From positions 150,001 to 182,000 of the forward strand of contig NC_016803.1 in the NCBI RefSeq assembly GCF_000189295.2: 32,000 nucleotides of DNA, written 5' to 3'. Each line of letters opens with the position of its first letter. Position 1 is the stretch's first letter. The DNA comes from Pseudodesulfovibrio mercurii. Lineage in GTDB: Bacteria > Desulfobacterota > Desulfovibrionia > Desulfovibrionales > Desulfovibrionaceae. Under the pieces are notes generated by a model. The model did no database searches, was not told the DNA's origin, and saw only the letters and a list, made by a program, of their open reading frames with translations. The position numbers were made by a program, and so were the translations under genes. Below, one piece after another: positions 1 through 17,583 of this stretch.

Positions 1-2
1 TG

Positions 3-2492
3 GAGGGCCTCGGCACTCCCGACAACCTGCATCCCATTCAGATGGCCTGGATCGCCTACGGCGGAGCGCAGTGCGGCTTCTGCTCCCCCGGCTTCCTGGT
101 CTCCACCTATGCGCTTTTGACCGAGAATCCGAGCCCCACCCGCGAGGAAATCCGCGACTGGTTCCAGCAGCACAAGAACGTCTGCCGCTGCACCGGTTAC
201 AAACCCCTGGTCGACGCCGTCATGGCCGCCGCCGAGGTCATGCGCGGCGACAAGTCCATGGATGATCTGATCTTCAAGATCCCCGAGAGCGGTCGCATCT
301 GGAACACCCGGTATCCGCGTCCGTCCGCCGTGGCCAAGGTCACCGGCACCTGGGACTTCGGCGCCGACATGGGTCTGCGCCTGCCCCCGGGAACCCTGCA
401 CTGCGAACTGGTCCAGGCCGAGGTTTCCCACGCCAACATCCTGTCCATCGACGTGACCGAGGCCGAGGCCGTGCCCGGCGTCTACAAGGTCGTGACCCAC
501 AAGGACGTCAAGGGCAAGAACCGCATCACCGGTCTGATCACCTTCCCGACCAACCTCGGCGACGGCTGGGATCGTCCCATCCTGTGCGACGAGAAGGTCT
601 TCCAGTACGGCGACGCCATCGCCATCGTCTGCGCCGACACCCCGCAGGCGGCCAAGGAAGGCGCCAAGAAGGTCAAGGTCGAACTCGAGCAGCTGCCCGA
701 GTACATGTCCGCCCCGGCGGCCATGGCCGAGGACGCCATCGAGATCCACCCCGGCACCCCCAACGTCTACTACATCCAGAAGGAAGCCAAGGGACCGGAC
801 ACCAAGCCCATCTTCGAGAAGGCCGACGTGGTCGTGGAAGGCGACTACTACACCCAGCGCCAGCCCCACATGCCCATCGAGCCCGACGTAGGGTTCGCCT
901 ACATGGGTGAGGACGACAAGCTGTTCATCCACTCCAAATCCATCGGCATCCATCTGCATCTGCTGATGATCGCCCCCGGTCTGGGCCTGGAGCCCGACAA
1001 GATCGCCCTGGTCCAGAACCCGACCGGCGGCACCTTCGGCTACAAGTTCTCCCCGACCATGGAAGCGCTGGTCGGCGCGGCGGCCCTGGCCACCGGCCGT
1101 CCCGTGTTCCTGAACTACACCTGGAAACAGCAGCAGCAGTACACCGGCAAGCGTTCCCCGCAGTTCACCACCGTGCGCCTGGCCTCCACCAAGGACGGCA
1201 AGCTGCTCGGCATGGAGACCGACTGGACCGTGGACCACGGCCCGTACTCCGAGTTCGGCGACCTGCTGACCCTGCGCGGCGCGCAGTACATCGGCGCCGG
1301 TTACGACATCCCGGCCATTCGCGGCGAGGGCCGCACCGTGTGCACCAACCACTGCTGGGGCGCGGCCTTCCGCGGCTACGGCGCTCCCGAGGCGGAGTTC
1401 CCCTCCGAGGTGTGCATGGACGAGCTGGCCGAGAAGCTGGGCATGGACCCGCTGGAACTGCGTTACAAGAACGCCTACCGCAAGGGTTCCACCACCCCCA
1501 CCGGCCAGGATCCCGAGGTCTACTCCCTGCCTGAGATGATCGACAAGGTCCGTCCCAAGTACGAGGAGTTCAAGAAGATCGCCGCCGAGAAATCCACCGA
1601 CGCCGTGAAGTACGGCGTGGGCGTGTCCATCGGCGTGTACGGTTCCGGTCTGGACGGCCCGGACACCGCCGAGGTCGATATCGCCCTGAACGAGGACAAC
1701 ACCGTCACGGTGTACTCCGCCTGGGGCGACCACGGCCAGGGCGCGGACATGGGTACCCTGGGCACCGCCCACGAGGCCCTGCGTCCCCTGAGCCTGACCC
1801 CGGATCAGATCCACCTGATGATGGGCGACACCAGCAACTCCCCCGCGGCCGGTCCCGCCGGCGGCAGCCGCTCCCAGGTCGTCGTCGGTCAGGCCACCAA
1901 GAACGCCTGTGATCAGCTCGTGGCCGCCATGCGGAAGCCCAACGGCGCCTTCCGCACCTACAAGGAAATGGTCGATGACGGTCTGGCAGTGCTCTATCAC
2001 GGCAAGTGGACCGCTCCGGCCAACGACTGCGATGCCAACGGCCAGGGCAACCCGTTCTGCTGCTACATGTACGGCGTGTTCTGCTTCCTGGTTTCCGTGG
2101 ACATCGCCACCGGCAAGGCCAAGGCCGAGAAGGTCGTCACCGTCGCCGACATCGGCGTGGTGAACAACTACCTCGTGGTGGACGGCCAGATCCACGGCGG
2201 CGTCGCTCAGGGCATCGGCCTGGCGCTGACCGAGGATTACGAGGACATCAAGAAGCACGCCAACATGGCCGGCGCCGGTATCCCGTACTGCAAGGACATC
2301 CCGGACGACATGGAGATCATCTACGTGGAATCCCCGCGTCCCGACGGTCCCTTCGGCGCTTCCGGCGTGGGCGAGATGCCTCTGACCGCTCCGCATGCGG
2401 CCATCATCAACGCCATCTACAACGCCTGCGGTGCGCGTATCCGCCACCTGCCGGCCTACCCCGAGAAGGTGCTCGCAGCGCTCAAGGGCTAA
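3..2492 (+). CDS. mop: Aldehyde oxidoreductase, Mop-type molybdenum hydroxylase (MCD-Moco, two [2Fe-2S]); 5' end lies outside the window
   Basis: Frame 3 is open from nt 3, upstream of the ORF-track Met at 42. The translation is collinear with the D. gigas MOP sequence as I remember it. Matching blocks include GGAQCGFCSPGF and CRCTGYKPLVDAV (second 2Fe-2S domain), GKNRITGLITFPTN.GDGWDRPILCDEKVFQYGD, RQPHMPIEPDV, QQQQYTGKRSP, PDGPFGASGVGE.PLT.PHAAIINAI and the C-terminal LPAYPEKVL.ALK. Stop TAA at 2490-2492. Confidence 0.95.
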   Translation, partial: EGLGTPDNLHPIQMAWIAYGGAQCGFCSPGFLVSTYALLTENPSPTREEIRDWFQQHKNVCRCTGYKPLVDAVMAAAEVMRGDKSMDDLIFKIPESGRIWNTRYPRPSAVAKVTGTWDFGADMGLRLPPGTLHCELVQAEVSHANILSIDVTEAEAVPGVYKVVTHKDVKGKNRITGLITFPTNLGDGWDRPILCDEKVFQYGDAIAIVCADTPQAAKEGAKKVKVELEQLPEYMSAPAAMAEDAIEIHPGTPNVYYIQKEAKGPDTKPIFEKADVVVEGDYYTQRQPHMPIEPDVGFAYMGEDDKLFIHSKSIGIHLHLLMIAPGLGLEPDKIALVQNPTGGTFGYKFSPTMEALVGAAALATGRPVFLNYTWKQQQQYTGKRSPQFTTVRLASTKDGKLLGMETDWTVDHGPYSEFGDLLTLRGAQYIGAGYDIPAIRGEGRTVCTNHCWGAAFRGYGAPEAEFPSEVCMDELAEKLGMDPLELRYKNAYRKGSTTPTGQDPEVYSLPEMIDKVRPKYEEFKKIAAEKSTDAVKYGVGVSIGVYGSGLDGPDTAEVDIALNEDNTVTVYSAWGDHGQGADMGTLGTAHEALRPLSLTPDQIHLMMGDTSNSPAAGPAGGSRSQVVVGQATKNACDQLVAAMRKPNGAFRTYKEMVDDGLAVLYHGKWTAPANDCDANGQGNPFCCYMYGVFCFLVSVDIATGKAKAEKVVTVADIGVVNNYLVVDGQIHGGVAQGIGLALTEDYEDIKKHANMAGAGIPYCKDIPDDMEIIYVESPRPDGPFGASGVGEMPLTAPHAAIINAIYNACGARIRHLPAYPEKVLAALKG

Positions 2493-2512
2493 CGGCACAG
2501 ACTTGAAACAAC

Positions 2513-2545
2513 GGCGGCCCGTGCCTTGGCATGGGCCGCCTTTTT
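2513..2545 (+). terminator. Rho-independent terminator after mop
   Basis: GGCGGCCCGTGCC (2513-2525) pairs with GGCATGGGCCGCC (2528-2540), with one G.U pair. TTTTT follows at 2541-2545. It starts 21 nt after the mop stop. Confidence 0.8.
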
Positions 2546-2561
2546 CCGTAAGTGGTGAACC

Positions 2562-4805
2562 ATGGAACAAGCGGAACTCAGACAGTGGGAACAGAAGTGC
2601 ATCCAGGAGGAATCCCCCCGGTGCACGGCGGCCTGCCCCCTGCATGTGGACGCGCGCGAGTGCTGTTCGCTGCTGGCCGCGGGCCGCGTGGACAAGGCGT
2701 GGGCCGTACTGGCCAAGACAATGCCCCTGCCGGGGGTCCTGGCCCGGACCTGCGACGCGCCGTGCAAGGCGGCCTGCCTGCGCCGGGACAAGGGCGGCCC
2801 CATCGAGATGGGGGCCCTGGAACGGTTCCTGGCGGGAACGGCCCAGGCGGCCAAACCGCCCCGGCCCCTGCCGCGCAACGGCAAGTCCGTGGCCGTCATC
2901 GGCGGGAACATGACCGGGCTGTGCGCGGCCTGGGAGATCGCCCGCAAGGGGTTCGCCGTGACCGTGTACTGCACCGCGCCGGACGCGGGCGCGGACCTGC
3001 CCGACGGGGTCCTGGACGGGGAACTCGCGGACATGGAGCGCATGGGCGTGGCCCTCAAGCGGGGCGCACCCCTGACCCCGGAGCTGGTCGAGGACCGGCT
3101 GGACGCATGCGACGCGGTCTTCATCGACGGCGACGGCGTGCCCGACGCGATCCTGAATTTCGCCGAACCCGACGAGATCACGCTCGGCACCAACCGTCTG
3201 GGGCTGTTCGCCACCCGTCCGGGCGAGACCTCGCCGGTCTTCATGGCCGCGGCCGGACGCCGCGCGGCCAACTCCATCCTGCGGTTCACCCAGGGCGTGT
3301 CCATGGTCAAGAGCCGCGAACTCGAAGGCCCCTACGAGACGCGCCTGTACACCGTGCTCGACAAGGTGGAGCCGGTGGCGCCCGTGGCCGTGGGGGAGGG
3401 CTATGACCAGCCCCGCGCCGTGGAGGAGGCCGCCCGCTGCCTGAAGTGCGAATGCATGGAGTGCGTGAAGGGCTGCGTCTTCCTCAAGCATTACAAGCAG
3501 TACCCCAAGGTCTACGTGCGCCAGGTCTACAACAACGAGGCCATTGTCCGGGGCACGCGCCAGGCCAACAAGATGATCAACTCGTGCATGCTCTGCGGCC
3601 TGTGCGACACGGTCTGTCCCGAGGACTTCGCCATGGGCGAGGTCTGTCTCGAGGCGCGGCGGCACATGATCGCCAAGGGGACCATGCCGCCCTCGGCCCA
3701 CGAGTTCGCTCTGCGCGACATGGCCTTTGCCGACGGCGACAAGTGCGCCCTGGCCCGGCACGCGCCGGGCGAGACCTCCAGCGAATACGTCTTTTTCCCC
3801 GGCTGCCAGCTGACCGCCACCGATCCCGGCGGTGCGGAGCGCGCCTATGCGGACCTCCGCACCCGGCTGGGCAAGGTCGGGCTGATCCTGCGCTGCTGCG
3901 GCGCTCCGGCCGCCTGGTCCGGGCGTGACGCCCTGTTCGGGGAGTCCCTGGCCGAACTGCGCGCGGACTGGCAGGGCCTCGGCTCGCCGCGCATCATCGC
4001 GGCCTGCCCCTCCTGCCTCAAGATCCTGCGGCAGGCCATGCCCGAGGCGGAGATCGTCTCCCATTGGTCCCTCCTGAGCGCCCTGGGACTGCCGGACACC
4101 GCCCTGAAGACGGGCGGGACCCTGGCCGTGAACGACCCGTGCGCTGCCCGCGAGGACGGGGCGCTGCGCGGCGAGGTGCGTGGCCTGCTGGACGCCCTCG
4201 GGGTGTCCGTGGTCGAACCGGAGTACAGTGGCGGGTTGACCCAGTGCTGCGGCTACGGTGGCCTGCTCAACGAGGTGGACCCCCAGCTCGGCCGGGCCGC
4301 GGCCCAGGCCAGGGCCGACGGCGCGGACGAGGACTTCGTGACCTACTGCGCCATGTGCCGGGACATGATCGCCCGCACGGGCAAGCGGACCATGCATCTC
4401 TACGATCTGCTCTATCCCGGCGGCGAGCCGGGGGCGCGGCCCACGCCAGGCCATTCCGAGCGGCGCGAGAACCGCGTCCACCTGCGCGAGAAGCTCCTGC
4501 GCGAGCTGTGGAGCGAGGCGGACGGCGTCCAGGCCGAGGACTTCGAGCGGGTCCGCATGACCTGCACCGAGATGGGCGCGGCGGCCATGGAGGAGCGGCG
4601 CATCCTCATCAGCGACGTGCAGAAGGTCCTGCTCCAGGCCGAACGATCCGGCAGGCACCTGGTCCACGGCGAGACCGGCCGCTTCCTGGCCTCGTTCAGG
4701 CCGAACACGGTGACCTACTGGGTGGAATACGAACTCACGGACGGCGGCTACCTGGTGCATAACGCCTGGTGCCACCGCATGAAGATAGAAGGAGGGCAGC
4801 CATGA
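2562..4805 (+). CDS. Multidomain Fe-S oxidoreductase: GltD-like N-terminal Cys cluster plus degenerate Rossmann segment, 2x[4Fe-4S] ferredoxin motifs, two CCG (HdrD/GlpC-type) Cys-rich domains, and an unknown C-terminal domain
   Basis: 747-aa ORF. Motifs seen: CTAACPLHVD...CDAPCKAAC; VAVIGGNMTGLCAAWEIARKG (GxGxxG-like); CLKCECMECVKGC and CMLCGLCDTVCP; FPGCQL...RCCGAP and NDPCAAR...QCCGYGG. GC3-rich codon usage is like its neighbours. Confidence 0.85.
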   Translation: MEQAELRQWEQKCIQEESPRCTAACPLHVDARECCSLLAAGRVDKAWAVLAKTMPLPGVLARTCDAPCKAACLRRDKGGPIEMGALERFLAGTAQAAKPPRPLPRNGKSVAVIGGNMTGLCAAWEIARKGFAVTVYCTAPDAGADLPDGVLDGELADMERMGVALKRGAPLTPELVEDRLDACDAVFIDGDGVPDAILNFAEPDEITLGTNRLGLFATRPGETSPVFMAAAGRRAANSILRFTQGVSMVKSRELEGPYETRLYTVLDKVEPVAPVAVGEGYDQPRAVEEAARCLKCECMECVKGCVFLKHYKQYPKVYVRQVYNNEAIVRGTRQANKMINSCMLCGLCDTVCPEDFAMGEVCLEARRHMIAKGTMPPSAHEFALRDMAFADGDKCALARHAPGETSSEYVFFPGCQLTATDPGGAERAYADLRTRLGKVGLILRCCGAPAAWSGRDALFGESLAELRADWQGLGSPRIIAACPSCLKILRQAMPEAEIVSHWSLLSALGLPDTALKTGGTLAVNDPCAAREDGALRGEVRGLLDALGVSVVEPEYSGGLTQCCGYGGLLNEVDPQLGRAAAQARADGADEDFVTYCAMCRDMIARTGKRTMHLYDLLYPGGEPGARPTPGHSERRENRVHLREKLLRELWSEADGVQAEDFERVRMTCTEMGAAAMEERRILISDVQKVLLQAERSGRHLVHGETGRFLASFRPNTVTYWVEYELTDGGYLVHNAWCHRMKIEGGQP

Positions 4806-5020
4806 GCAGCGCGATCACGGTACCTGGAACCGGAGCCGGGGGCTGGCGTTGCGGCCCCTGCGACGAGGACATGGTCATGAAACCGGTGGGGCTGACCTAT
4901 CTCAACTCCCGGTTTGACGTGGAATTGCCCACCTGCCCCAAGTGCGGCTACGTGCTCATCCCCGAGTCCCTGGCCCTGGGCAAGATGTACCAGGTGGAGC
5001 AACTGCTGGAGGACAAGTAA
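4802..5020 (+). CDS. Small zinc-ribbon protein (72 aa), putative redox or metal-binding partner
   Basis: The ATG at 4802 overlaps the upstream stop (ATGA). The protein has CGPC...(25 aa)...CPKC, a four-Cys knuckle pair. It is in the same frame as the ORF-track entry 4769-5020, and the coupled ATG is preferred. Confidence 0.7.
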   Translation: MSSAITVPGTGAGGWRCGPCDEDMVMKPVGLTYLNSRFDVELPTCPKCGYVLIPESLALGKMYQVEQLLEDK

Positions 5021-5022
5021 CC

Positions 5023-5676
5023 GTGCGATTCGCGCCGCCTCCGCTGTGGGAGCGCGCGGAACTGCGCGCCGTGGCCGGGGAGACCCTGCGGCCGGGCGGC
5101 TTCGAGCTGACCGACCGGGCGGCGGACTTCATCGGCGCGGTGCCGGGCTGGCGCGTCCTGGACGTTGGTGCGGGCCTGGGGGCCACCGTGGCCCGGCTGC
5201 GGGCGCGCTACGGCGTGCGGGCCTGGGGCGTGGAGCCCTCGGCCGACCAGCTCGACCGGGCCAAGGGTGCGCCGGGACTCGTCCGGGCGCGCGGCGACCG
5301 GTTGCCGTTTCTGCCGGAAACCTTTGACGCGCTCTTCTGCGAGTGCGTCTTTTCCCTGTTCGACGACCGGCCCGGAGGGCTCACGGAATTTCACCGGGTG
5401 CTAAGGCCAGGCGGTTTCCTGGTCCTGTCCGACCTGTGCGCCGTCGGCTGCCCCGTGGGCGACGGCGCGTCCTGCGCGGACCGGGCCGCGCCCCTGGCCG
5501 AGACCGACCGGCTGGTCCGAGAGGGCGGATTTACGGTCCGGCTGCTGGAGGACCACGGCGCCCACCTGCGGGACCTGGCCGCCCGGCTGGTCTGGACCGC
5601 CGGGGAGGCGGCCTCCGACTGCAACCGGGACCTGGGCTATTTCCTGATGATCGCGCAAAAGCAAGGAGCGGACTGA
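5023..5676 (+). CDS. Class I SAM-dependent methyltransferase
   Basis: The GTG at 5023 lies 2 nt after the upstream stop. Motif I is VLDVGAGLGATV, post-I is GVEPS, and LRPGGFLVLSD is present. The longer ORF-track start at 4942 would overlap the previous gene. Confidence 0.85.
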   Translation: MRFAPPPLWERAELRAVAGETLRPGGFELTDRAADFIGAVPGWRVLDVGAGLGATVARLRARYGVRAWGVEPSADQLDRAKGAPGLVRARGDRLPFLPETFDALFCECVFSLFDDRPGGLTEFHRVLRPGGFLVLSDLCAVGCPVGDGASCADRAAPLAETDRLVREGGFTVRLLEDHGAHLRDLAARLVWTAGEAASDCNRDLGYFLMIAQKQGAD

Positions 5677-6131
5677 TGCTGGACGACGCCGGACTTCGCG
5701 TCATGGAACTTGCCGGAAAGGGCTATTGTTGCAGCCAGATGATGGTCATCATGGCCCTGGACGAGATGGACCGCGAGGACCCGGACCTGGTCCGGGCCGC
5801 GGGCGGGCTGTGCAACGGGCTGGGCGACTGCTCCGGACCGTGCGGCGTGCTCACGGGCTCGGTCCTGGCGCTCGGCCTGTACGCGGGCAAGGGGCAGGAC
5901 ATGGAGGAGCCCGAGGAGGTCCTGCCGGTCATGCTCGAGTCCCTGCGCGACTGGTTTACGGAGCGGACCCTGGAATACGGCGGCATCACCTGCGGGGCGA
6001 TCCTGGACGGCGGCTGCGGCAAGCCCCATCCCGAGCGCTGCGGCGGGTTGGTGGCCGAGGCCAACGCCAAGGTGCGCGAAATTCTGGTCGATAACGGGCT
6101 CGACCCGGCCGAGGGACGCGAGCTGCCGTGA
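5676..6131 (+). CDS. C_GCAxxG_C_C family protein (Cys-rich putative redox protein)
   Basis: The ATG at 5676 shares one nt with the upstream TGA (TGATG). The family-like Cys pattern is GYCCSQ..., CSGPCGVLTGSVLALG, ITCGAIL, ERCGGLV. The upstream part of ORF 5343-6131 overlaps the methyltransferase and was rejected. Confidence 0.85.
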   Translation: MLDDAGLRVMELAGKGYCCSQMMVIMALDEMDREDPDLVRAAGGLCNGLGDCSGPCGVLTGSVLALGLYAGKGQDMEEPEEVLPVMLESLRDWFTERTLEYGGITCGAILDGGCGKPHPERCGGLVAEANAKVREILVDNGLDPAEGRELP

Positions 6132-7510
6132 ATTCGAGTCCGAGAAGCGTCTGCCCGATCTGCCTGCGGCCGATCCCGGCCCGCCACGAGACCGTGGCCC
6201 ACGAGACCTTCCTGGTCAAGGAGTGCCCGGAGCACGGCGCGTTCCGTACCGTGGTCTGGCGCGGCGAGCCGTCCTTCGACTCCTGGGCGCGTCCCAAGGT
6301 CCCGTCCGGGCCGAAGACGCCGTTCACCCGTGTGGAGCGGGGGTGCCCTCTGGACTGCGGGCTGTGCGACGCCCACCGGCAGCACACCTGCACCGCGCTC
6401 ATCGAGGTCACCTGGCGCTGCGACCTGGGCTGTCCGGTCTGTTTCGCTTCATCCGGCAAGGCGGCCCCACCCGATCCGTCCCTCGATGCACTGGACACGC
6501 TCTTCGACCGGGTGGAGCTGGCCTCGGGCCACTGCAACATCCAGCTCTCGGGCGGCGAGCCCACGGTGCGCGAGGACCTGCCCGAGATCATCCGGCTGGG
6601 CAAGGCCAGGGGATTTCCGTTCATCCAGCTGAACACCAACGGGCTGCGGCTCGGTTGCGAACCGGGCTACGCGGACCGGCTGGCCGAGGCCGGGCTGGAT
6701 TCGGTCTTTCTCCAGTTCGACGGCACCGAGGAATCCATTTTCGAGGCCCTGCGGGGCCGCCCGCTGCTCGAAACCAAGCTCGCGGCCCTGGACGCATTGG
6801 CCCGTGCCGGGGTAGGCGTCATCCTGGTGCCCACGCTGGTGCCGGGGGTCAACGACCGCGACCTGGGCAACATCCTCAGGCTGGGCGCGGCCCGCTCTCC
6901 GGCGGTGCGCGGGGTGCATTTTCAGCCGGTCAGCTATTTCGGGCGCTATCCCAAGCAGCCGGACGACGGCGAGCGCATGACCCTGCCCGAGATCATGCGC
7001 GGCTTGGAGGCCCAGACGGGCGGGATGCTCAGGGCGACGGATTTCCGGCCGCCGGGCTGCGAGCACGCCTACTGCTCCTTTCACGCCAACTACGTGGTCA
7101 CGGAGGATGGCGGGCTGACCCGGCTCTCCTCGGGCGGGTCCTGCGGCTGCACACCGCGCCCGGCCTCCGAGGGGGCGGACGCGGCCAAGGCCTTCGTCAA
7201 GCGCCAGTGGGCCGCCCCGGGCAAACAGCTGCCCATGGCCTTCGACGGGCCGGGCGGGGCCGCCCCTTCGCGGAGCGCACCCGAGGACGCCCTGGACGCC
7301 TTCATCCGGCGGGCGGCCACCCACACCTTCGCGGTTTCGGCCATGGCCTTCCAGGATTGCTGGACCCTGGACCTGGAACGGCTCAAGGGGTGCTGCATCC
7401 ACGAGGTCTCGCCGGACGGGCGGCTCATCCCGTTCTGCGCCTACAACCTGACGTCCATGGGCGGCGAAACCCTGTATCGGGGGAAATGTCATGGGCCGGT
7501 CCCATCTTGA
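6128..7510 (+). CDS. Radical SAM protein with an N-terminal zinc ribbon and two tandem CX3CX2C motifs
   Basis: The GTG at 6128 overlaps the upstream stop (GTGA). Cys/His residues: C9-x2-C12...C33-x2-H36; C73PLDC77GLC80; C98DLGC102PVC105. GGEPT and a TIM-barrel-like core follow. Confidence 0.9.
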   Translation: MNSSPRSVCPICLRPIPARHETVAHETFLVKECPEHGAFRTVVWRGEPSFDSWARPKVPSGPKTPFTRVERGCPLDCGLCDAHRQHTCTALIEVTWRCDLGCPVCFASSGKAAPPDPSLDALDTLFDRVELASGHCNIQLSGGEPTVREDLPEIIRLGKARGFPFIQLNTNGLRLGCEPGYADRLAEAGLDSVFLQFDGTEESIFEALRGRPLLETKLAALDALARAGVGVILVPTLVPGVNDRDLGNILRLGAARSPAVRGVHFQPVSYFGRYPKQPDDGERMTLPEIMRGLEAQTGGMLRATDFRPPGCEHAYCSFHANYVVTEDGGLTRLSSGGSCGCTPRPASEGADAAKAFVKRQWAAPGKQLPMAFDGPGGAAPSRSAPEDALDAFIRRAATHTFAVSAMAFQDCWTLDLERLKGCCIHEVSPDGRLIPFCAYNLTSMGGETLYRGKCHGPVPS

Positions 7511-8783
7511 TTGCTGGCTGGCCGGGCGCATGGGGCGCGACGCGACGCCGACCCGGCCCGAGCTGCGCGCCTGGCTGCTGGAGCGGCTGCGGGAGCTGGT
7601 GGACCACGCCCGGCGGGGCAGTCCGTTCTACGCCCGCCACTTCGCGGACGTGTCCGGCGCGGACATTTCGTCCCTGGAGGACTTCGCCCGGTTGCCGGAG
7701 ATATCCCCGGAGCTGCTGCAGACCACCCCGGACGCGCTCCTGAGTGTGTCCCGCAGCGAGATCGAACGGGTGGTCACCCTGTCCAGCTCCGGGACCACGG
7801 GCGAGCCCAAGCGCATCTTCCACACGGCCGCCGACCTTGAGGCCACGGTGGATTTTTTCGGCTGGGGCATGGCCAACATGGTCGAGCCGGGCGGCACGGC
7901 CCTGGTGCTCCTGCCCGGCGAACGGCCCGGCGGGGTGGGGCGACTGCTCGGCGAGGCCCTGGCGCGGCACGGCTCCAGGGTCGTGGCCATCGGCGAACTG
8001 ACGGACGCCGGGGCGGCCGTGGAGCGGTGCCTGGCCGAGAAGGCCGCCTGCGTGGTCGGCTCCCCGGCCCACGTCAACCTGCTGGCCCACGCCTGGGCCG
8101 CGCGCGGCCTGCCCAAGGGGGGCATCCGGTCCGCGCTGCTCTGCTGGGACGTCATCCCTGACGCGGTCCGGGCCAGCGTGGCCGAGCGGCTGGGCTGTCG
8201 GGTCTTCCGCCACTGGGGCATGATCGAGACCGGCCTGGGCGGGGCCGTGGAGTGCGCGCCCGGTTCGGGCATGCACCTGCGCGAGACCGACGTCTTCGTT
8301 GAGATCGTGGACCCGCGCACGGGCGCCTTGCTGCCGGACGGCGAGTTCGGCGACATGGTCGTGACCACGCCGCTCAAGATGGGCATGCCGATCATCCGCT
8401 ACCGCACCGGGGACGTGGGCCGCATCCTGCCCGGCGCGTGCGGTTGCGGCAGTCCCCTGCGTCGGCTGGACCCGCTGGTCCGGCGCAGGCGCGACGGTGT
8501 GACCCTGGCCTCCGGTAGCCTGACCCTGCGGGAACTGAACGAGATTTTGTACGGCCTGCCGGGCGTGGCCGATTTCGCGGCCCGGCTGGAGGGCGACACC
8601 CTGCGCGTCACGGTCTGCGGCAGCGAGCCGGCGGACGCGGTCCTGGCGGCCCTGAAGGGAGCGCCCGCCGTGGCCGGGGGACTTGTCCAAGGCACCCTGA
8701 AGGTGGATATTGAGAACAGGCATGACGCCGCGCCCGCCGTCCCAGGACTGGCCAAGCGGCGCATAACGACAGGAGTTGCATGA
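7491..8783 (+). CDS. Adenylate-forming enzyme, PaaK / coenzyme F390 synthetase-like
   Basis: SSSGTTGEPKR (AMP-binding A3 motif), YRTGD (A8) and a C-terminal GLAKRR Lys motif. The ATG at 7491 has GGGGGA 7 nt upstream and overlaps the radical SAM gene by 20 nt. An alternative ATG lies at 7530. Confidence 0.9.
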   Translation: MGRSHLDCWLAGRMGRDATPTRPELRAWLLERLRELVDHARRGSPFYARHFADVSGADISSLEDFARLPEISPELLQTTPDALLSVSRSEIERVVTLSSSGTTGEPKRIFHTAADLEATVDFFGWGMANMVEPGGTALVLLPGERPGGVGRLLGEALARHGSRVVAIGELTDAGAAVERCLAEKAACVVGSPAHVNLLAHAWAARGLPKGGIRSALLCWDVIPDAVRASVAERLGCRVFRHWGMIETGLGGAVECAPGSGMHLRETDVFVEIVDPRTGALLPDGEFGDMVVTTPLKMGMPIIRYRTGDVGRILPGACGCGSPLRRLDPLVRRRRDGVTLASGSLTLRELNEILYGLPGVADFAARLEGDTLRVTVCGSEPADAVLAALKGAPAVAGGLVQGTLKVDIENRHDAAPAVPGLAKRRITTGVA

Positions 8784-9775
8784 TGAAAGCGTTTGTGCGC
8801 GACGTGGCCGGACTGGTGCGGGCCGAGGAGCCCTTTGTCCTGGCCACGGTGGTGGAGAGTTCCGGGTCCACGCCCCGGTCTTCGGGCGCGAAGATGGCCG
8901 TGCGGCCCGACGGGTCCATTTTCGGCACCGTGGGCGGCGGTCTGGCCGAGGCCCAGGCCTGCCGGGCGGCCGTGGAGATGTTGACGAACGGCGCCAAGGA
9001 CGGCGAGGCCAGGCTGATGTTCGTGGACATGACCCAGGAACTGGCCGCGAATTCCGACATGATCTGCGGCGGCGGGCTGTCCCTGCTCCTGGAAATGGCC
9101 GCTCCGGGCGGTGATTGCGCCCGCGTCTACGCCGAACTCGATCACCGGTTGCGCACGGGGGCGATCTCCACGCTGACCACGCGCATCCACGGCGGCAAGA
9201 CCCCGCGCATCCTCGGGCACGAGCTGCTGTTCGGCAGGTCGGTCGGCGAGGAGCCGGTCTTTTCGCGCGAGGCCGACCCCATGGTCCTGGACGAACCGTT
9301 CATCCCGCCCGCGCCGCTGTACATTTTCGGGGCCGGGCACGTGTCCCGGTTCACCGCGCGGGTGGCGGCCATGGTCGGCTTCCGCACCGTGGTCCTGGAC
9401 GATCGCGCGGACTACGCCAACCGCGAGCGGTTCCCCGAGGTGGACGAGGTGGTGGTCCTCGACTCCTTCGAGGGGTGCTGCGATGCCTTCAAGGACGATC
9501 CCGAGGCCTTCGTGGTCATCGTCACGCGCGGCCACCTGCACGACCGCAACGTCCTGGCCGAGGCCCTGCGCACCAGGGCGCACTACGTGGGCATGATCGG
9601 CAGCTCCACCAAGCGGAACAAGATTTACGACTCCCTGCTGGCCGACGGTTTCACCCAGGCCGACATCGATCGCTGCTACAGCCCCATCGGGCTGCCCATC
9701 GGCGGGCGGACCCCGGAGGAAATCGCGGTCAGTATCGTGGGCGAACTCATCCAGGTCCGGGCGGGCAAGCAATGA
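8780..9775 (+). CDS. xdhC: XdhC/CoxI-family molybdenum cofactor insertion chaperone
   Basis: N-terminal FVLATVVESSGSTPRSSGAKMAV...GTVGGG, then the Rossmann-like half LYIFGAGHVS...VIVTRGH. AGGAG at 8771-8775. The ATG at 8780 overlaps the upstream stop (ATGA); the ATG at 8783 is an alternative. Confidence 0.9.
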   Translation: MMKAFVRDVAGLVRAEEPFVLATVVESSGSTPRSSGAKMAVRPDGSIFGTVGGGLAEAQACRAAVEMLTNGAKDGEARLMFVDMTQELAANSDMICGGGLSLLLEMAAPGGDCARVYAELDHRLRTGAISTLTTRIHGGKTPRILGHELLFGRSVGEEPVFSREADPMVLDEPFIPPAPLYIFGAGHVSRFTARVAAMVGFRTVVLDDRADYANRERFPEVDEVVVLDSFEGCCDAFKDDPEAFVVIVTRGHLHDRNVLAEALRTRAHYVGMIGSSTKRNKIYDSLLADGFTQADIDRCYSPIGLPIGGRTPEEIAVSIVGELIQVRAGKQ

Positions 9776-10920
9776 AGGGGCTGACCGCGATCATCCCGGC
9801 CGCGGGGCTGTCCTCGCGCGTGGGCAGGTTCAAGCCGCTCCTGCCCCTTGACGGCGGCACGGTCCTGTCGCGTTGCGTTCGGCTGTTCAGGACGTGCGGC
9901 GTGGAGCGGGTCGTGGTGGTCACGGGCAAGCGCGCCGACGAGGTGGCCGCCTGCGCCATGGAGGCCGGGGCCGAGGCCGTGCACAACGCGGCCTTCGAGC
10001 AGGGCATGTATTCCTCGGTCCTGACCGGGGTGCGCGCCCTCGAGCCGGACGTGGACGCCTTTTTCATGCTTCCGGCGGACATCCCCCTGGTGCGGCCCGA
10101 GACCGTGACGCGGCTCATGGACGCCTACTCGCGCACGCGATCCACCGTGCTCTACCCCCGGTTCGCCGGGAAGCGCGGCCACCCGCCGATCATCGCCGCC
10201 GAGGTCGTCCCGGACATCCTCGCCCATGACGGGAGCGGGGGGCTGCGGACCGTGCTGAGCCGGTTCGAGGCGGGAGCGCGCGACCTGGACGTGGCAGATT
10301 TCGGAATCTCGTACGACCTGGACCATCTCGAGGACTACGAGATGGCCTTGGCCGTGGCCGGGATAGGCTATCCCCTCGCGGACGAGTGCCGCGAACTGTT
10401 CCGGTTGCAGGGGGTTTCGGACCACATCCGGAACCACTGCCGGGCCGTGGCCGCCGTGGCCTCGGCCCTGTGCGAACGGTTGAACGGCCGTCTGGACGAG
10501 CGCCGGGCCGCCGGGACCCGCGTGGTCCGGCTGGATCCCGGCCTGGTCCTGGGCGCGGCCCTGACCCACGACATCGGCAAGGGCACCAAGCGGCACGAGG
10601 CCGCCGGGGCCGAACTGCTCCGCGCCCACGGTTTTCCCGCCGCGGCCGACGTCGTGGGCGCCCATTTCGACGTGGCCCTGGCCGACGACGCGCCGATCAC
10701 CGAGAAGGAGGTCGTCTTCCTGGCCGACAAGCTGGTCCGCTGCCACGGGCCGGTCCCGCTGGCGGACCGCTACATGGAGAAGGTGGCCATGTACCGGCAC
10801 GAGGAGGGCGCGGAGGAGGCCATCCTGGGACGGCTCGGCCGGGCCAGGGCGGTCATGGACCGCTTCGACCGCGAGATGGCCGATTCGTCCGAACGCATCG
10901 CCGGGCAGGCCCTGTCGTGA
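9772..10920 (+). CDS. MobA/MocA-like NTP transferase fused to a C-terminal HD-domain phosphohydrolase
   Basis: The ATG at 9772 overlaps the xdhC stop (ATGA). N-terminus IIPAAGLSSRVGRFKPLLPL (nucleotidyltransferase P-loop-like) and MLPADIPLV. The C-terminal half has H...LTHDIGKG (HD signature). Confidence 0.9.
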   Translation: MKGLTAIIPAAGLSSRVGRFKPLLPLDGGTVLSRCVRLFRTCGVERVVVVTGKRADEVAACAMEAGAEAVHNAAFEQGMYSSVLTGVRALEPDVDAFFMLPADIPLVRPETVTRLMDAYSRTRSTVLYPRFAGKRGHPPIIAAEVVPDILAHDGSGGLRTVLSRFEAGARDLDVADFGISYDLDHLEDYEMALAVAGIGYPLADECRELFRLQGVSDHIRNHCRAVAAVASALCERLNGRLDERRAAGTRVVRLDPGLVLGAALTHDIGKGTKRHEAAGAELLRAHGFPAAADVVGAHFDVALADDAPITEKEVVFLADKLVRCHGPVPLADRYMEKVAMYRHEEGAEEAILGRLGRARAVMDRFDREMADSSERIAGQALS

Positions 10921-11516
10921 TCGTGCTCCTGCGCCATGCCCGGACCGAGGGCGGCCGGGGGATGTGCGTGGGGCGCACGCCCCTGCTTCTCTCGCCCGAG
11001 GGACACGTCCAGGCCCTGGACCTGGCCGGATGTTTCGTGGAGATTCCGTGGGCGCGGCTCTGTTCCAGCCCGGCGCGCCGGGCGCGGGAGACCCTGAGCC
11101 CGCTGGCCGCCCGGCTGGGCAGGGTCGTGGACATCCTGCCCGCCCTGGACGAGATCGACATGGGCGCGTGGGACGGGTTGCCCTTCGAGGTCCTCCGTGA
11201 GCGGTTTCCCGAGGCCTACGCGGCGCGCGGGCAGGGGCTCGGCCGGTTCCGGGTGCCGGGCGGGGAGAGCTTCGCCGACGTGGCCGACCGGGCCATGGCC
11301 GTTTTGGAGGAGTTGGCCCGAGGTCCGCAGCCGGTGCTGGCGGCGACCCACGCGGGCGTGCTCCGGGCGGTGCGCTGCCGTCTGACCGGCCATCCCCTGG
11401 ACGATCTGTTCCGCTTCACGCCGGGCAACGCGCAGTGCACGGTCCTCGGCACGGACGGCGGGTTGTCCCTTGCCGCTGCCGACCTGGACGCGCCTGCGGT
11501 GCGCGAACTGTTCTGA
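10917..11516 (+). CDS. Histidine phosphatase family protein (CobC / phosphoglycerate-mutase-like)
   Basis: The GTG at 10917 overlaps the upstream stop (GTGA). LLRHARTEG (RHG-type catalytic His) and a second catalytic-His block, LAATHAGVLRA. Confidence 0.85.
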   Translation: MIVLLRHARTEGGRGMCVGRTPLLLSPEGHVQALDLAGCFVEIPWARLCSSPARRARETLSPLAARLGRVVDILPALDEIDMGAWDGLPFEVLRERFPEAYAARGQGLGRFRVPGGESFADVADRAMAVLEELARGPQPVLAATHAGVLRAVRCRLTGHPLDDLFRFTPGNAQCTVLGTDGGLSLAAADLDAPAVRELF

Positions 11517-11534
11517 ATTCCTTCCGGGCCGTTG

Positions 11535-12419
11535 TCACAGCCGTTTCTGGACGAATTTCGAATTGCTCGAATAGAAGATGTTGTAGACAAGGGTCAGCAG
11601 GCAGGCGAACGCCGCCGAGCCGATGCCGATGGCCACGTTGTAGAAGGGCGGCGCGGTCAGGGCCAGCCTGATGAGCAGGGTGGCCAGGGCGAAGCCGGAG
11701 TTGCGGAAGACCGCCCGGAACTCGGGCAGGAACCGCTGGGCGATGAGCACCAGCATGATGTCGCTGAAGATCAGCACCGTGTAGAAGCTCTTGAAGAAGT
11801 GGAAGGGATGCTCGCCCCGGAGCACGTGCAGGCCGTTCTGGATGCCCATGCCCACGAAGATGGCCAGCATGACCAGGGCGACCAGCTTCTTGGCGGCCAC
11901 GAACTTGAACAGCGGGGTGCCCCCCCTGATGGTTTCGTCCAGGTTGCGGCGCAGCAGGGCGTAGACCCCGAGCAGGCAGAAGATGATTACGGCCCCGCAG
12001 CCGTCCGAGATGAGTTCCCACAGCTCGGTCTCGTGGCCGGTGATGGTGATGGGTTCCGGGAAGTCCGCCAGGGTCTTGAAGGCGTCCCTAAGCAGGATCA
12101 GGGCCAGGATCTCGAACTGCTTGCCCACGGACTTGGAGATGGAGCAGGGCAGGGTGAAGATCAGGCCGACCACCTCCAGGACCAGGACCAGGGTGAAGGC
12201 CAGGTTGATGGCCATGAAGTGGCTGGTCGGGATCATTGCTCCGAGCTGCCCGGTGATCCAGCCCTGCCGTTTCATCTCGATGGTGATCAGCGCCAGGACG
12301 AAGACCACCACCAGGAAGCCGGCCACGGCCCGCTGGGTGGAGTCCCTTTCCCAGAAGTGGTGCAGGGGATCGAAGGTGAAGGTCACCAGGTCGTATATCT
12401 TGTGCATGGGATGTAGCAT
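11535..12419 (-). CDS. Polytopic integral membrane protein, function unknown
   Basis: Six or more hydrophobic segments (VAGFLVVVFVLALITI, FMAINLAFTLVLVLEVVGLIF, GAVIIFCLLGVYALL, LVALVMLAIFVGMGI, TVLIFSDIMLVLIA, IGIGSAAFACLLTLV). I prefer the ATG at 12419, preceded by GGAAGAG, over the TTG at 12458 used by the ORF track. It converges on the phosphatase gene with an 18-nt gap. Confidence 0.75.
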   Translation of the reverse strand: MLHPMHKIYDLVTFTFDPLHHFWERDSTQRAVAGFLVVVFVLALITIEMKRQGWITGQLGAMIPTSHFMAINLAFTLVLVLEVVGLIFTLPCSISKSVGKQFEILALILLRDAFKTLADFPEPITITGHETELWELISDGCGAVIIFCLLGVYALLRRNLDETIRGGTPLFKFVAAKKLVALVMLAIFVGMGIQNGLHVLRGEHPFHFFKSFYTVLIFSDIMLVLIAQRFLPEFRAVFRNSGFALATLLIRLALTAPPFYNVAIGIGSAAFACLLTLVYNIFYSSNSKFVQKRL

Positions 12420-12499
12420 GATCTCTTCCGGATAAGTCCATCGGTTGCGCGCCGTCAACCGGCACGGTCGATGAACTAGCAGGGACCGTGCGGAAAGTA

Positions 12500-12518
12500 A
12501 ATAGGAAATATTCCTATT
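12500..12518. repeat. AT-rich perfect hairpin/palindrome AATAGGAA-ATA-TTCCTATT
   Basis: 8-bp arms and a 3-nt loop. It lies 3 nt beyond the helicase stop and about 80 nt upstream of the membrane-protein start. A second stem (GCACGGTC 12463-12470 / GACCGTGC 12484-12491) sits beside it. Its function is not resolvable from sequence; it could be a terminator or an operator. Confidence 0.5.
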
Positions 12519-12521
12519 AAC

Positions 12522-15500
12522 CTAAATTTCGAAAAGCATTTCGAGGTCGTCGCGGGTCAGGCTCTTGAGGGCGGACTGGCCGGGGATGATCGCTTCGGCC
12601 ACGTCCTTCTTCTGCTCCTGGAGCTTGAGGATGCGCTCTTCCACGGTGTTCTGGCGGATCATCTTGTAGGCGAAGACCTGGCGCTTCTGGCCGATGCGGT
12701 GGGTACGGTCCGTGGCCTGGTTCTCCACGGCCGGGTTCCACCACGGGTCGTAGTGGATGACGTAGTCCGCGCTGGTCAGGTTCAGGCCGGTGCCGCCCGC
12801 CTTGAGGGAGATGAGGAAGATGGGGATGTCCGGGTTCTCGTTGAAGCGGTCCACCTGCTCGAAGCGGTCCTTGGACGAGCCGTCCAGGTAGGCGAAGGGG
12901 ATCTCCCGGATTTGCAGCCAGTTGCGGATGACATGGAGCATCTGCACGAACTGGGAGAAGACCAGGACCTTGTGGCCGCCTTCGATGATGTCCACCACCA
13001 AATCCTTGAAGGCGTCGAACTTGCCGGACGGCAGGTTGGTGGACACGCCGGGCATGTCGAGTTTGAGCAGGCGCGGGTGGCAGCAGATCTGCCTGAGCTT
13101 GAGCAGGGCGTCCAGGATGGACATCTGGCTCTTGGCCATGCCCTTCTCGTCCACGTCCTTGAGGACCTGGTCCTTGAGCTTCTTGGCCAGGGCGTTGTAC
13201 AGCTCGCGCTGCTCGTCCACAAGGTCGCAGTAGTGCGTGGTCTCGATCTTGGGCGGCAGGTCCTTGGCCACCTCGGCCTTGGTGCGGCGCAGGATGAACG
13301 GCTTGACCCGCGTGCGCAGGTAATCCAGCGTCTCCTCGTCGCCGTCCTTGATGGGCTTGACGATGCCGCGCTGGAACGAGTGCTGGGAGCCCAGGAAGCC
13401 GGGCATGAGAAATTCGAACAGGGACCAGAGCTCGAACAGGTTGTTCTCGATGGGCGTGCCCGACAGGCAGACGCGCAGGCCTGCTTCGAGCTTGCGCACC
13501 GAGCGGGCGGTGATGGTGTTCGGGTTTTTGATGTTCTGGGCCTCGTCCAGGATGACGCTGGCGTACTCGTACTTGAGCAGTTCGTCGAGGTCGCGCCGCA
13601 GCAGGGCGTAGGTGGTGATGACCAGGTGGGAGTCCTTGATGTGCTGGAACAGCCCCTCGCGCTTGGCTCCGTAGATGGTCAGCCGCTTCAGGCCGGGCAC
13701 GAACTTCTGGGCCTCGCGCTCCCAGTTGGGCAGGACCGAGGTGGGCACGATGATCAGGTTCGGCCCGGTCACGCCGCTGTCCACCAGGGACTGGATGTAG
13801 GACAGGGTCTGGATGGTCTTGCCGAGCCCCATCTCGTCGGCCAGGATGCCGCCGAAGCCGTATTCGCGCAGGAAGTTCAGGTAGCTCAGGCCCTGAATCT
13901 GGTAGGGGCGCAGGGTGGCCTGCAGCTCCTTGGGCTGGGCGATGATCTTGATCTGGTCGAAGTTGTTGATCTTCTCGCGCAGCTTGACGAAAAATTCATC
14001 GGTCTGGGCCTGGGGCAGGTCCTCCAGGATCTTTTCGAGCACCGGGGCCTCGAACTGGTTGAACTGCTGCTTGGGGGCCTTTTCCGGGTCGAAGCCCAGG
14101 GCCTTGAGCTTGTGGCCGAGCTTGTTCAGCCAGGACTCGGGCAGGCTGGTGTAGGAGCCGTCCTTGAGCTGGACGTACCGCTTGCCCTTGGTCCACGCCT
14201 CCCAGATGACGTCGATGGGCACGCGCTGGTCGTCGTACTGCACGGACAGCTCGAGGTTGAACCACTTGTCCTCCTCGTCGCTCTCCACCTCGGCCACGAC
14301 CACGGGCTGCGTGGTGCGCACCTTGTAGCGGGTCAGGTTCTGTTCGCCGTAGACCCGGTAGGCCTCGACCAGCTGCGGGTAGTGGTCCAGCAGGAAGTTG
14401 ATGGCCTCCTCCTGTTCCATGAACCAGATGTGGTTGTTCCGGGGCTGGAAATTCATGTCCTGGAGCTCGGTCAGCAGCCGGGCCTCCTCGTCCTGAGCGC
14501 GGCGGATGAGATAGGACTTGCCGCCCTCGTGGTAGGAGCCGGTCTGCAGGTCCGGGTTGGGGCCGGGCATGATGAACTCCCCGTGCTCGTTGGAGTAGAT
14601 GTTCTGGATCTTGAGCACGAGCAGGGAGCCCTCCTCGTCGAGGTAGAGCTTGGGGTCGTAGTCCGCGTCCTGGAAGATGGGACCGACCCGCTCCAAGAAG
14701 TCCTCCTGGCCGTAGAGGTCGCTGACCGGAATCTGGGTCCAGACGCGGTCCAGGAACTCGGACACGTCGGCGTGGGGCACGATGGGCTTCTGCTCGACCA
14801 TGCCCTGGACCAGCTTGGGGTCCAGCCCGGTCTGCACCGGGTAGAAGGAGTTCTTGTAGTAGACCCACAGCGGCAGCCGCCCGTAGAAATAGATCTCCTC
14901 CTCGTCGGTGATGGGGAAGGGCATCTTGTCCTCCCGGGCCAGGAGGATGTCGAAGGACAGGCCGTCCTCGCTCAGCGCGGGCGAGAGCTTGAGCTGCATG
15001 GTCTTGGACTCGATGGTCACGGGCTGGTCGGTCTCGCGCAGATAGAGGTAATACTCGTTCTTGATGGCGCGGAAGAACCAGGAGTGCAGGCCCGCCGGAA
15101 TCTCGACCTTGTGGCCCCAGTAGTCCAGGTAGTGGCCGATCTGCTCGGCCACGCCGGGCAGGGCCGGGGAGGTGTCGCACCAGTCGGCGTTCTCGACGAT
15201 CTGGGCCAGGGTGACCTCGTTCTGGACCTGGGAGATGCCGGACTTGTTCTGCCGGGCGCGGAAGAAGGCCACCTGCAACCGGCCCAGCTCCGGGTAGATG
15301 CGGTAGATGAGGTAGTGGCGGCCCGCCTCGGGTTCGAGCTCGGTGGCGAAGAAGGGGCGGAAGGTCTGGCGCCAGTCCGTGCGCGGGGTGGGCATCTCGC
15401 CGCCGGACTCGGTGTCCAGGGACTTGAGCAGCTTGATGGCCGTGGCGGCCACGTGACGGCAGACCCCGGAGAAGGAATCCGGGCAGTTGCAGTAGTAATT

Positions 15501-15731: not shown

Positions 15732-15930
15732 TCAATGTCTCGCGAAATCAATCAGGTCAACAAATTCGAACAGAACTTCTTACATGGAACACCGCCGATG
15801 GGCAAGCTGGATTTGTTTTCCCCCATGTCCATGTGGACCCTTGGCTTTTCGCACCCGTTGGTCCATACTGGGAACATCAGCCATGCTCGCATAATTGTAT
15901 GGGCCAACCAAACTGTTTTTGCAAGGGAAA

Positions 15931-17568: not shown

Positions 17569-17583
17569 CACGGACGGACATAT

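Follow-up and report, generated by a model that had tools for sequence, protein, structure and literature searches.

Nine coupled genes beside the molybdenum aldehyde oxidoreductase gene of Pseudodesulfovibrio mercurii: a catalogued cassette and a candidate redox partner

Introduction

The aldehyde oxidoreductase (AOR) of Desulfovibrio is a textbook molybdenum enzyme, and its structure was the first to be solved in the xanthine oxidase family. A 32,000-nucleotide (nt) stretch of the Pseudodesulfovibrio mercurii genome (contig NC_016803.1, positions 150,001 to 182,000, forward strand), which as a whole is called the window below, begins inside mop, the gene of such an enzyme, and continues with nine closely packed genes, g1 to g9. 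What does this cassette do beside Mop? The question concerns an enzyme whose physiological role and electron acceptor are still described as 'putative' (PMC10223205), as is the reason for its inactive form with an oxidised cofactor (PMC3877041). The cassette is already catalogued: in the literature we found it in proteomics tables, a selenoproteome review and a Clostridium ljungdahlii transcriptome, and no functional study.

The window Mop is orthologous to the D. gigas and D. desulfuricans enzymes of Protein Data Bank (PDB) entries 1DGJ and 1SIJ/1VLB. D. gigas AOR has no flavin adenine dinucleotide (FAD), its partner flavodoxin is only 'putative', and its authors describe the search for a 'missing flavo-domain'; it carries an ordinary pyranopterin cytosine dinucleotide and needs no sulfido ligand (PMC10223205). 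Preparations contain an active and an inactive form that do not differ in mass; in the inactive one the dithiolene is oxidised, and only strong reductants reactivate it (PMC3877041). The lack of FAD and the oxidised inactive form make a dedicated low-potential redox partner, or a re-activator, attractive. The original prediction for this locus, made from the letters of the sequence, had offered two hypotheses. One was that the cassette makes or repairs a modified pterin dinucleotide or active-site ligand for Mop; the modified dinucleotide is not supported, since the ordinary cofactor and the equal mass of both D. gigas forms speak against it (PMC10223205, PMC3877041). The other, that it couples maturation to a dedicated electron-transfer partner, is the better fit of the two.

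The cassette follows Mop

Homologous loci were collected by scanning one genome per species with an alignment of TrsS, the radical S-adenosylmethionine (SAM) enzyme encoded by g5. At least 598 of the 600 stretches listed hold a TrsS relative, and the 80 loci that were kept come from Desulfobacterota, Chloroflexota, Bacillota, Acidobacteriota, Campylobacterota, Spirochaetota, Actinomycetota and Pseudomonadota. Most have the order mop, g1 to g9, so that the cassette stands directly 3' of an aldehyde oxidoreductase of the NF045668 type, as it also does in a close relative of the window, locus L163. Separation of the cassette from any Mop or xanthine-oxidase-family enzyme, which would speak against a tie to Mop, is not common at the level of the locus: of the 64 evaluable loci, 49 have a Mop ortholog on the 5' side and 53 a Mop-clade gene within 10 kb, the four extra cases being one ortholog cut by a contig edge and three genes at 41-46% identity. 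As for the remaining genes, TrsS is accompanied by g6 in 70 of 73 evaluable loci, g2 in 66 of 75, g4 in 66 of 77, g3 in 64 of 76 and g1 in 57 of 70; the three last genes are found less often (g7 42/72, g8 40/69, g9 38/67).

The same linkage is seen from the side of Mop. On metagenome contigs, each of 14 Mop orthologs (at least 54% identity) is followed on its 3' side by g1, g2 and g4, 13 by TrsS and 12 by g6. The 3' flanks of other xanthine-oxidase-family genes (27-36% identity) hold none of these (g1 and g2, 0/21 each; g4, TrsS and g6, 0/10 each), and four Mop-like genes at 38-50% identity also come with g2 and mostly with g1. Because they stand after every evaluable Mop ortholog and after no other xanthine-oxidase-family gene in these samples, g1 and g2 are a concrete candidate for the partner of Mop. 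By the same 14-of-14 rule, D. gigas would be expected to carry the cassette. The pairing of Mop with g1 and g2 makes the long-standing question of the electron acceptor directly testable in tractable strains such as D. vulgaris Hildenborough and P. mercurii ND132, the latter being the source of the window and formerly called D. desulfuricans ND132.

Smaller sets also occur. Locus L094 consists of Mop, g1, g2 and g4 alone and resembles the first of two tandem sets in C. ljungdahlii, each made of Mop, a CCG oxidoreductase (g1), a four-Cys protein and a C_GCAxxG_C_C protein, of which the first is induced on syngas or H2/CO2 (PMC5640608). L161 has Mop and a g1-g2 fusion beside genes for alcohol dehydrogenase and enoate reductase, and within 10 kb the rest of the cassette is missing.

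g1 and g2 as one unit

g1 joins several redox modules in one chain. Its N-terminus is a GltD/NfnA-like domain with two [4Fe-4S] clusters (amino acids [aa] 10-96), followed by a remnant FAD domain (aa ~107-245), an HdrC-like domain with two further [4Fe-4S] clusters (aa 290-356), two HdrB-like CCG domains (aa 409-601) and a C-terminal domain of about 90 residues (aa 655-747, nt 4524-4802). Both five-Cys CCG motifs are complete (C415, C445, C446, C482, C485 and C527, C562, C563, C596, C599); all 10 of these cysteines are 100% conserved in 58 sequences, and those of the N-terminal and HdrC-like diclusters are 98-100% conserved. The combination of an NfnA/GltD-like dicluster, an HdrC-like dicluster and two CCG motifs relates g1 to HdrB/DsrK/EtfD CCG proteins and to GltD/NfnA modules. 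It differs from them in having no NAD(P)H (reduced nicotinamide adenine dinucleotide [phosphate]) domain and, in the window copy, a degenerate FAD motif, and in its extra C-terminal domain for a Zn-ribbon subunit and its obligate pairing with a molybdenum hydroxylase. In the Mop-less loci L074 and L078, the g1-like proteins have a complete NAD(P)H domain and are without the ~90 residues of the C-terminal domain; the Mop-linked g1 is about 200 residues shorter than these, with the second Rossmann motif and thus the NAD(P)H domain gone.

The small g2 protein has four invariant cysteines, and its C-terminal LEDK with the stop codon (LEDK at nt 5006-5017) is essentially invariant across phyla in 84 loci. 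The two genes form a single open reading frame (ORF) in L034, L054, L057 and L161 and in database clusters P0228 and P0237, and in L047 g2 is fused to the g1 C-terminal domain alone (160 aa). An AlphaFold2 model of P0237, an 821-aa fusion homolog that stands in for the window g1, reached a mean predicted local distance difference test (pLDDT) score of 91 and a predicted template modelling score of 0.82, with the last ~15 residues uncertain; its best fold matches are NfnA and StnC, both electron-bifurcating subunits, and mycobacterial EtfD. The single-ORF fusions and the confident one-body fold of P0237 argue that g1 and g2 are one unit. Modelled alone, g2 gave a Zn ribbon with a flexible helix and tail (pLDDT 70), and its best PDB matches were generic Zn ribbons at a non-significant E of 0.2. 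A role of g2 as a LysW-like carrier or as a substrate of the radical SAM enzyme drew no support from this fold search. In its distribution g2 follows g1 and Mop rather than TrsS and g6: L060, L077 and L078 do not have it, and L094 and L161 do. The LEDK tail could be a docking or modification site. Side by side with these two stands g4, with invariant cysteines C19, C56, C106 and C122; a PDB search gave no relative of it. It accompanies Mop, g1 and g2 in L094, and a g4-type protein accompanies Mop and a g1-type gene in C. ljungdahlii (PMC5640608).

A coupled operon set apart from mop

All eight junctions between g1 and g9 are overlapped or nearly so, exactly as had been described: ATGA at 4802, a 2-nt gap at 5021-5022, TGATG at 5674-5678, GTGA at 6128, a 20-nt overlap at 7491-7510, ATGA at 8780, ATGA at 9772 and GTGA at 10917. 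In L163, where g1 has 87% identity, independent gene calling recovers these nine genes with the same overlaps and with products of 748, 72, 216, 151, 460, 429, 330, 379 and 199 aa. The 80 g5-anchored loci, which span many phyla, show similar spacing: depending on the junction, 68-89% of them have 10 nt or less at each of the eight positions between g1 and g9. The coupling of the nine genes exceeds chance, and they form a real operon.

The cassette adjoins mop and is uncoupled from it. Within the 69-nt spacer lies a terminator-like hairpin (a perfect 12-bp stem, 10 of its pairs G-C, followed by TTTTT) with a fold energy of -33.7 kcal/mol (z = -3.75). Of 50 orthologous spacers, 30 have a similar hairpin that ends in a T-rich tail, where dinucleotide shuffling yields 2.8 +/- 1.7 and the opposite strand 13, and the mop-g1 junction is never 10 nt or shorter (0/50 loci; minimum 55 nt, median 118). 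The conserved layout is mop, a terminator-like element and then the coupled cassette. Thus, of the earlier statement that the nine genes are attached to mop, adjacency holds and coupled expression does not, since the element intervenes. This layout implies different levels of expression for mop and the cassette, with the hairpin setting the abundant enzyme and its accessory genes separately. In locus L032 (508-6000), two mop copies in tandem, at 66% and 65% identity to the window Mop, stand 5' of one cassette.

Modules of the cassette

The cassette splits into modules that occur independently, so the nine genes do not make up one pathway as the original prediction had assumed. We distinguish Mop (module A), the Fe-S/CCG body of g1 (module B), the g1 C-terminal domain with g2 and g4 (module C), g3 with TrsS and g6 (module D), and g7 to g9 (module E). 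Several loci show the modules in other company. In L047, g6, a tungsten-type aldehyde ferredoxin oxidoreductase, a ferredoxin and an aldehyde dehydrogenase precede a fusion of the g1 C-terminal domain and g2, followed by g3, g4 and TrsS. Locus L039 (4295-16235) encodes an XdhB-like FAD subunit and a hybrid of XdhC-type 2x[2Fe-2S] domains with an Fdh/PhsA-like Mo-bis-pyranopterin guanine dinucleotide (Mo-bisPGD) domain; the g1 C-terminal domain, g2, g3, g4, TrsS, g6, MoeA and an ArsS-type radical SAM gene come after this hybrid enzyme. L060, L077 and L078 (Dehalococcoidia, Syntrophales) have TrsS and g6 with neither Mop nor g2, L077 and L078 also having g3, and the neighbours there are a g1-like protein with an NAD(P)H domain, or separate Fe-S proteins and flavoproteins, or a major facilitator superfamily (MFS) transporter. 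L074, likewise without Mop and with a g1 of the NAD(P)H type, also has g3 and a g2 that is divergent and ends in LESK. This pattern of gene content suggests that Mop and the NAD(P)H-type g1 are alternative electron inputs.

Module D is built around TrsS, which has an N-terminal rubredoxin-like ribbon, an invariant CX3CX2C motif (C98/C102/C105), auxiliary-cluster cysteines and a radical SAM domain (PF04055, E 3.9e-22). Its residues 5-309 and 398-441 align with the glycerol dialkyl glycerol tetraether (GDGT) enzyme GDGT-MAS (7TOL, E 9e-80), the central aa ~310-397 remaining unaligned, and TrsS scores 328 bits against the Tes model NF045702, below its cut-off of 450. It therefore shares ribbon, radical SAM core and auxiliary-cluster cysteines with GDGT-MAS/Tes and differs in its sub-cut-off score, its central region and a variable tail that carries Cys or selenocysteine (Sec) in some members. 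In the window the tail ends LYRGK-C454 (nt 7487-7489, TGT); the cysteine is kept in close relatives, replaced by TGA in several orthologs, and many have neither. Cys454 is, from this comparison, the probable Sec-equivalent site, and none of the nine window genes has an in-frame TGA. The tail extension creates the 20-nt overlap with g6.

The Pfam name of the TrsS N-terminal ribbon, 'HMPTM', goes back to a time when MJ0619 was annotated as a hydroxymethylpterin methyltransferase. A pterin methylase read from this label was rejected: the nearest relative in the PDB bears the title GDGT-MAS, and the label therefore says nothing in favour of pterin chemistry. TrsS would probably be collected under the BLAST thresholds of surveys for a 'bacterial Tes homolog' (PMC8941075, PMC11868695), the comparison made here being with NF045702 and 7TOL and not with the MA_1486 query itself. 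It would then probably be counted as such a homolog in surveys of producers of branched GDGT (brGDGT), although its dominant neighbours, Mop and the cassette rather than lipid genes, speak for another function. In L041 (9962-12139), TrsS is fused to DUF5714 and no other cassette gene was detected in the locus, and L077 (9986-15461) has two tandem TrsS paralogs followed by g6 and an MFS transporter.

The adenylating enzyme g6 has the ANL fold and conserved catalytic Lys (K422) of PaaK and F390 synthetase, from which it differs in a PaaK equivalog score of 108, far under the TIGR02155 cut-off of 646, in an extra invariant Cys triad (C255, C317, C319) and in its constant pairing with TrsS. In the methyltransferase g3, Cys108 is the sole conserved cysteine (98%); the nearest named relatives are ArsM-type methyltransferases (53 bits, cut-off 240), and their set of arsenic-binding cysteines is not found in it. 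The chemistry of this radical SAM, ligase and methyltransferase trio could be new.

Module E includes the genes that known biology explains. XdhC and MocA mature xanthine-oxidase-family enzymes with a molybdopterin cytosine dinucleotide (MCD) cofactor, examples being R. capsulatus XdhC and E. coli PaoD/MocA. g7 has both XdhC domains (XdhC_CoxI and XdhC_C) with a 95% conserved Cys96, and g8 a MobA/MocA-type NTP_transf_3 domain, beside an MCD enzyme. The differences from this system are that g8 stays below the MocA cut-off (TIGR03310, 142.5 of 186.45 bits) and is fused to an HD domain whose motif residues are conserved, and that the histidine phosphatase g9 comes next (PF00300, E 2.6e-43; CobC TIGR03162, 120.8, below the cut-off of 162.9; R6, H7 and H145 conserved). 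The molybdenum cofactor (Moco) pathways described so far are not known to involve an HD domain of this kind or a protein like g9. The original prediction was right that only the XdhC and MocA-like proteins are accounted for by known Moco biology.

A possible redox partner for Mop

The explanation that we favour, tentatively and at somewhat less than an even chance, is that modules B and C serve Mop as a redox partner of its own, by accepting its electrons, by reductively re-activating it or by both, that module D is a radical SAM unit fed by the same electrons, and that module E matures the cofactor. In this scheme g1 would be a chain of four [4Fe-4S] clusters ending at an HdrB-type double-CCG site, with g2 as a Zn-ribbon subunit bound to its C-terminal domain. 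Electrons from the aldehyde would pass over Mo and the two [2Fe-2S] clusters of Mop to the g1 clusters and on to the HdrB-like site, a direction of flow that is inferred. There they would reduce a disulfide-type acceptor, most simply the four-Cys g4, in the way that DsrK reduces DsrC. Run backwards, the same wire could re-reduce the oxidised, inactive pyranopterin dithiolene known from D. gigas AOR.

TrsS would be a GDGT-MAS-type radical SAM enzyme with three Fe-S clusters and g6 a PaaK-like adenylating enzyme. Module D would be self-contained and need low-potential electrons, which a hybrid Mo enzyme, a tungsten AOR, an NAD(P)H-type g1 or Mop with g1 might supply. To judge by the relatives of its enzymes, it may activate a carboxylate and form a C-C or C-S bond at an unactivated carbon. 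XdhC, the MocA-HD protein and the phosphatase (g7 to g9) would make the cytosine dinucleotide cofactor and insert it into Mop.

A more specific version, which we consider improbable, is that the TrsS-ligase-methyltransferase module, g4 and the LEDK-COOH tail of g2 build a new thiol or selenol redox group whose disulfide accepts Mop electrons through the HdrB-like site of g1. Such a group might take the form of a small cofactor, or else of a prosthetic arm like lipoyl, carried by the terminal lysine of g2. If true, it would be a bacterial, aldehyde-driven counterpart of the methanogen heterodisulfide couple.

Several observations weigh against the redox-partner explanation. A terminator between mop and g1 fits accessory factors better than a stoichiometric partner, and the D. 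gigas and D. desulfuricans Mop structures were solved as single chains with no partners. Flavodoxin serves as an acceptor in vitro (PMC10223205), and we found no experiment that ties g1 or g2 to Mop. The FAD fingerprint of the window g1 is degenerate (the first GxGxxG reads GGNMTG and the GD motif is gone), GxGxxG being kept in most g1 orthologs. The g1 C-terminal domain, g2 and g4 also stand beside a tungsten AOR and a hybrid Mo-bisPGD enzyme, which have their own electron carriers, and this hints at a more general role with pterin enzymes, in maturation or repair. Furthermore, the sequences of TrsS, g6 and g3 point to no particular substrate or product, and all co-occurrence was counted within 10 kb.

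Alternative explanations

The strongest alternative, still unlikely in our judgement, corresponds to the first hypothesis of the original prediction: a maturation or repair machine in which g2 to g6, with g1 as reductase and in concert with XdhC and MocA, put in place, modify or renew some feature of the Mo- or W-pyranopterin centre. Candidates for that feature are a labile S or Se ligand or the redox state of the dithiolene, in Mop and occasionally in other pterin enzymes. That the set as a whole is almost always linked to the Mop clade would follow from it, as would the translational coupling of g6 to XdhC and MocA and the lower, accessory-type expression that a terminator after mop implies. 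The Mop-less core directly behind the tungsten AOR of L047 or the hybrid Mo-bisPGD enzyme of L039, there with MoeA adjacent, also agrees with this explanation, and so do the Cys-rich proteins, the Cys/Sec tail on some TrsS and the reductive activation that the oxidised-dithiolene form of D. gigas AOR needs (PMC3877041). On the contrary, Mop and g1-g2 occur with no TrsS, g6 or g3 nearby (L094, L161), and around TrsS, g6 and g3 in L060, L074, L077 and L078 no pterin enzyme was detected in the ORFs that were examined out to 10 kb. The D. gigas cofactor is, as described above, ordinary and without a sulfido ligand, with equal masses for both forms (PMC10223205, PMC3877041), and known Moco steps include neither a GDGT-MAS-type radical SAM enzyme nor an ANL ligase.

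Aldehyde catabolism or detoxification is a quite improbable explanation. Mop would oxidise the aldehyde, g6 would make an acyl-adenylate (acyl-AMP) or acyl-coenzyme A (acyl-CoA), and TrsS and g3 would alter the carbon skeleton. The PaaK-like character of g6 suggests it, together with the company of g6 in L047 (the tungsten AOR and a phenylacetaldehyde-dehydrogenase-like Aldedh) and of Mop in L161 (alcohol dehydrogenase and enoate reductase). However, g6 follows TrsS (70/73) rather than Mop and is absent from the minimal Mop sets, its distance from the PaaK cut-off (108 against 646) and extra conserved Cys triad set it apart from PaaK, and the loci hold no downstream genes of CoA-ester metabolism.

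We regard as very improbable that, in the manner of other selenoprotein neighbourhoods, an ArsM-like methyltransferase and a radical SAM enzyme build or detoxify organoarsenic or organoselenium compounds acting on the arsenite-sensitive Mo centre. The ArsM-type relatives of g3 (53 bits), the ArsS-type gene in L039 and the selenoprotein forms in the TrsS and C_GCAxxG_C_C families (PMC13188914) lend it some colour; g3, however, has one conserved cysteine only and lies far under the ArsM cut-offs (53 against 240), ars genes beyond the L039 ArsS were not noticed, in loci that were not screened systematically, and the window proteins are all Cys forms. Least probable of all, and hardly to be expected, is that TrsS is a bacterial Tes for membrane-spanning lipids of the brGDGT type, for which g6 and g3 would supply activated and methylated fatty acids: its homology to GDGT-MAS/Tes (E 9e-80; 328 bits to NF045702), the proposal of bacterial Tes homologs as brGDGT synthases (PMC8941075) and a ketoacyl synthase near TrsS in L060 are outweighed by the sub-cut-off Tes score (328 against 450), the unaligned aa ~310-397, the Mop-clade neighbour in 53 of 64 loci and the lack, that ketoacyl synthase aside, of a glycerolipid or ether-lipid gene among the ORFs scanned with Pfam and NCBIfam, which do not cover every locus.

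Gene families and features of the locus

Families were assigned by the curated cut-offs of Pfam and NCBIfam (Table 1), and the domain assignments first made by eye agree with both. Eight of the nine cassette proteins score above curated NCBIfam cut-offs, and g9 has no dedicated model. The system is the one already described by the NCBIfam DVU_155x/TrsS neighbourhood (NF045645, NF045646, NF045663-NF045669), in which the family names imply the D. vulgaris gene order; the window copy differs as an all-cysteine form, in which the probable Sec site of TrsS reads TGT. A 2026 review (PMC13188914) counts TrsS among the selenoprotein families and attributes it to Haft & Tolstoy 2025 (mSystems). The original prediction had named a syntenic block, DVU1550-1559, next to the D. 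vulgaris aldehyde oxidoreductase, and families called after those locus tags. Both statements were correct: the NCBIfam models match, five of them bear the locus tags DVU_1551, 1553, 1555, 1556 and 1557, and DVU_1559 is the D. vulgaris AOR (PMC10920352).

Table 1. Features of the mop locus in the window, with NCBIfam assignments (bit score against curated cut-off)
Feature	Coordinates	Strand	NCBIfam model	Score / cut-off	Remarks
mop, molybdenum (MCD) aldehyde oxidoreductase	1..2492	+	NF045668, molybdopterin-dependent aldehyde oxidoreductase (pterin_aldehy)	1502 / 1100	5' end outside window, first ~88 codons missing; NF045668 aligned from model position 89
Terminator-like hairpin in mop-g1 spacer	2513..2547	+
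g1 (DVU1558-type), Fe-S/CCG oxidoreductase	2562..4805	+	NF045663, 'pyridine nucleotide-disulfide oxidoreductase/dicluster-binding protein' (diclust_near_Sec)	970 / 530	NF045663 and Pfam domains
g2, 72-aa CxxC...CxxC Zn-ribbon protein	4802..5020	+	NF045645, DVU_1557 family redox protein (DUF7479)	101 / 60
g3, class I SAM methyltransferase	5023..5676	+	NF045667, DVU_1556 family methyltransferase (MTase_DVU1556)	206 / 155	conserved E107-C108
g4, C_GCAxxG_C_C protein	5676..6131	+	NF045669, DVU_1555 family C-GCAxxG-C-C protein (DVU1555_fam_CGA)	172 / 103
g5, TrsS, radical SAM enzyme	6128..7510	+	NF045646, radical SAM (seleno)protein TrsS	682 / 490	Cys form
g6, PaaK-like adenylate-forming enzyme	7491..8783	+	NF045666, DVU_1553 family AMP-dependent ligase (DVU1553_fam_AMP)	425 / 300
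g7, XdhC-family Moco insertion chaperone, aldehyde-oxidoreductase type	8780..9775	+	NF045664, XdhC family aldehyde oxidoreductase maturation factor (XdhC_rel_AOR)	397 / 350
g8, MocA-like nucleotidyltransferase fused to HD phosphohydrolase	9772..10920	+	NF045665, DVU_1551 family NTP transferase (NTPtran_DVU1551)	426 / 315
g9, histidine phosphatase (branch 1)	10917..11516	+			CobC-like below cut-off

In the protein collection, g1 and g5 were matched exactly while the best match of g2 was 89% and none reached 100%; the small g2 gene may be unannotated in the source genome. An Rfam search of the window gave no family at threshold, and a scan of 1-12600 for sigma-70-like promoters, ill-suited to this organism, found none. 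The region 5' of mop lies beyond the left edge of the window and was seen in L163, where a MoCF_biosynth-domain gene (6132-7148) stands directly 5' of mop and a divergent HTH_3 regulator further up.

At its other end, 11516, the operon faces a convergent ORF. The remainder of the window is unrelated and includes genes for an SNF2 helicase, SpoT, a serine dehydratase, malate synthase G and a sensor kinase. No Pfam match was obtained for four ORFs, of which three are long: 11535-12458 (-), 15877-17571 (-), 20375-21220 (+) and 21105-23096 (+). The G+C fraction drops to 0.545 at 29-30 kb, against ~0.65-0.70 in other parts of the window.

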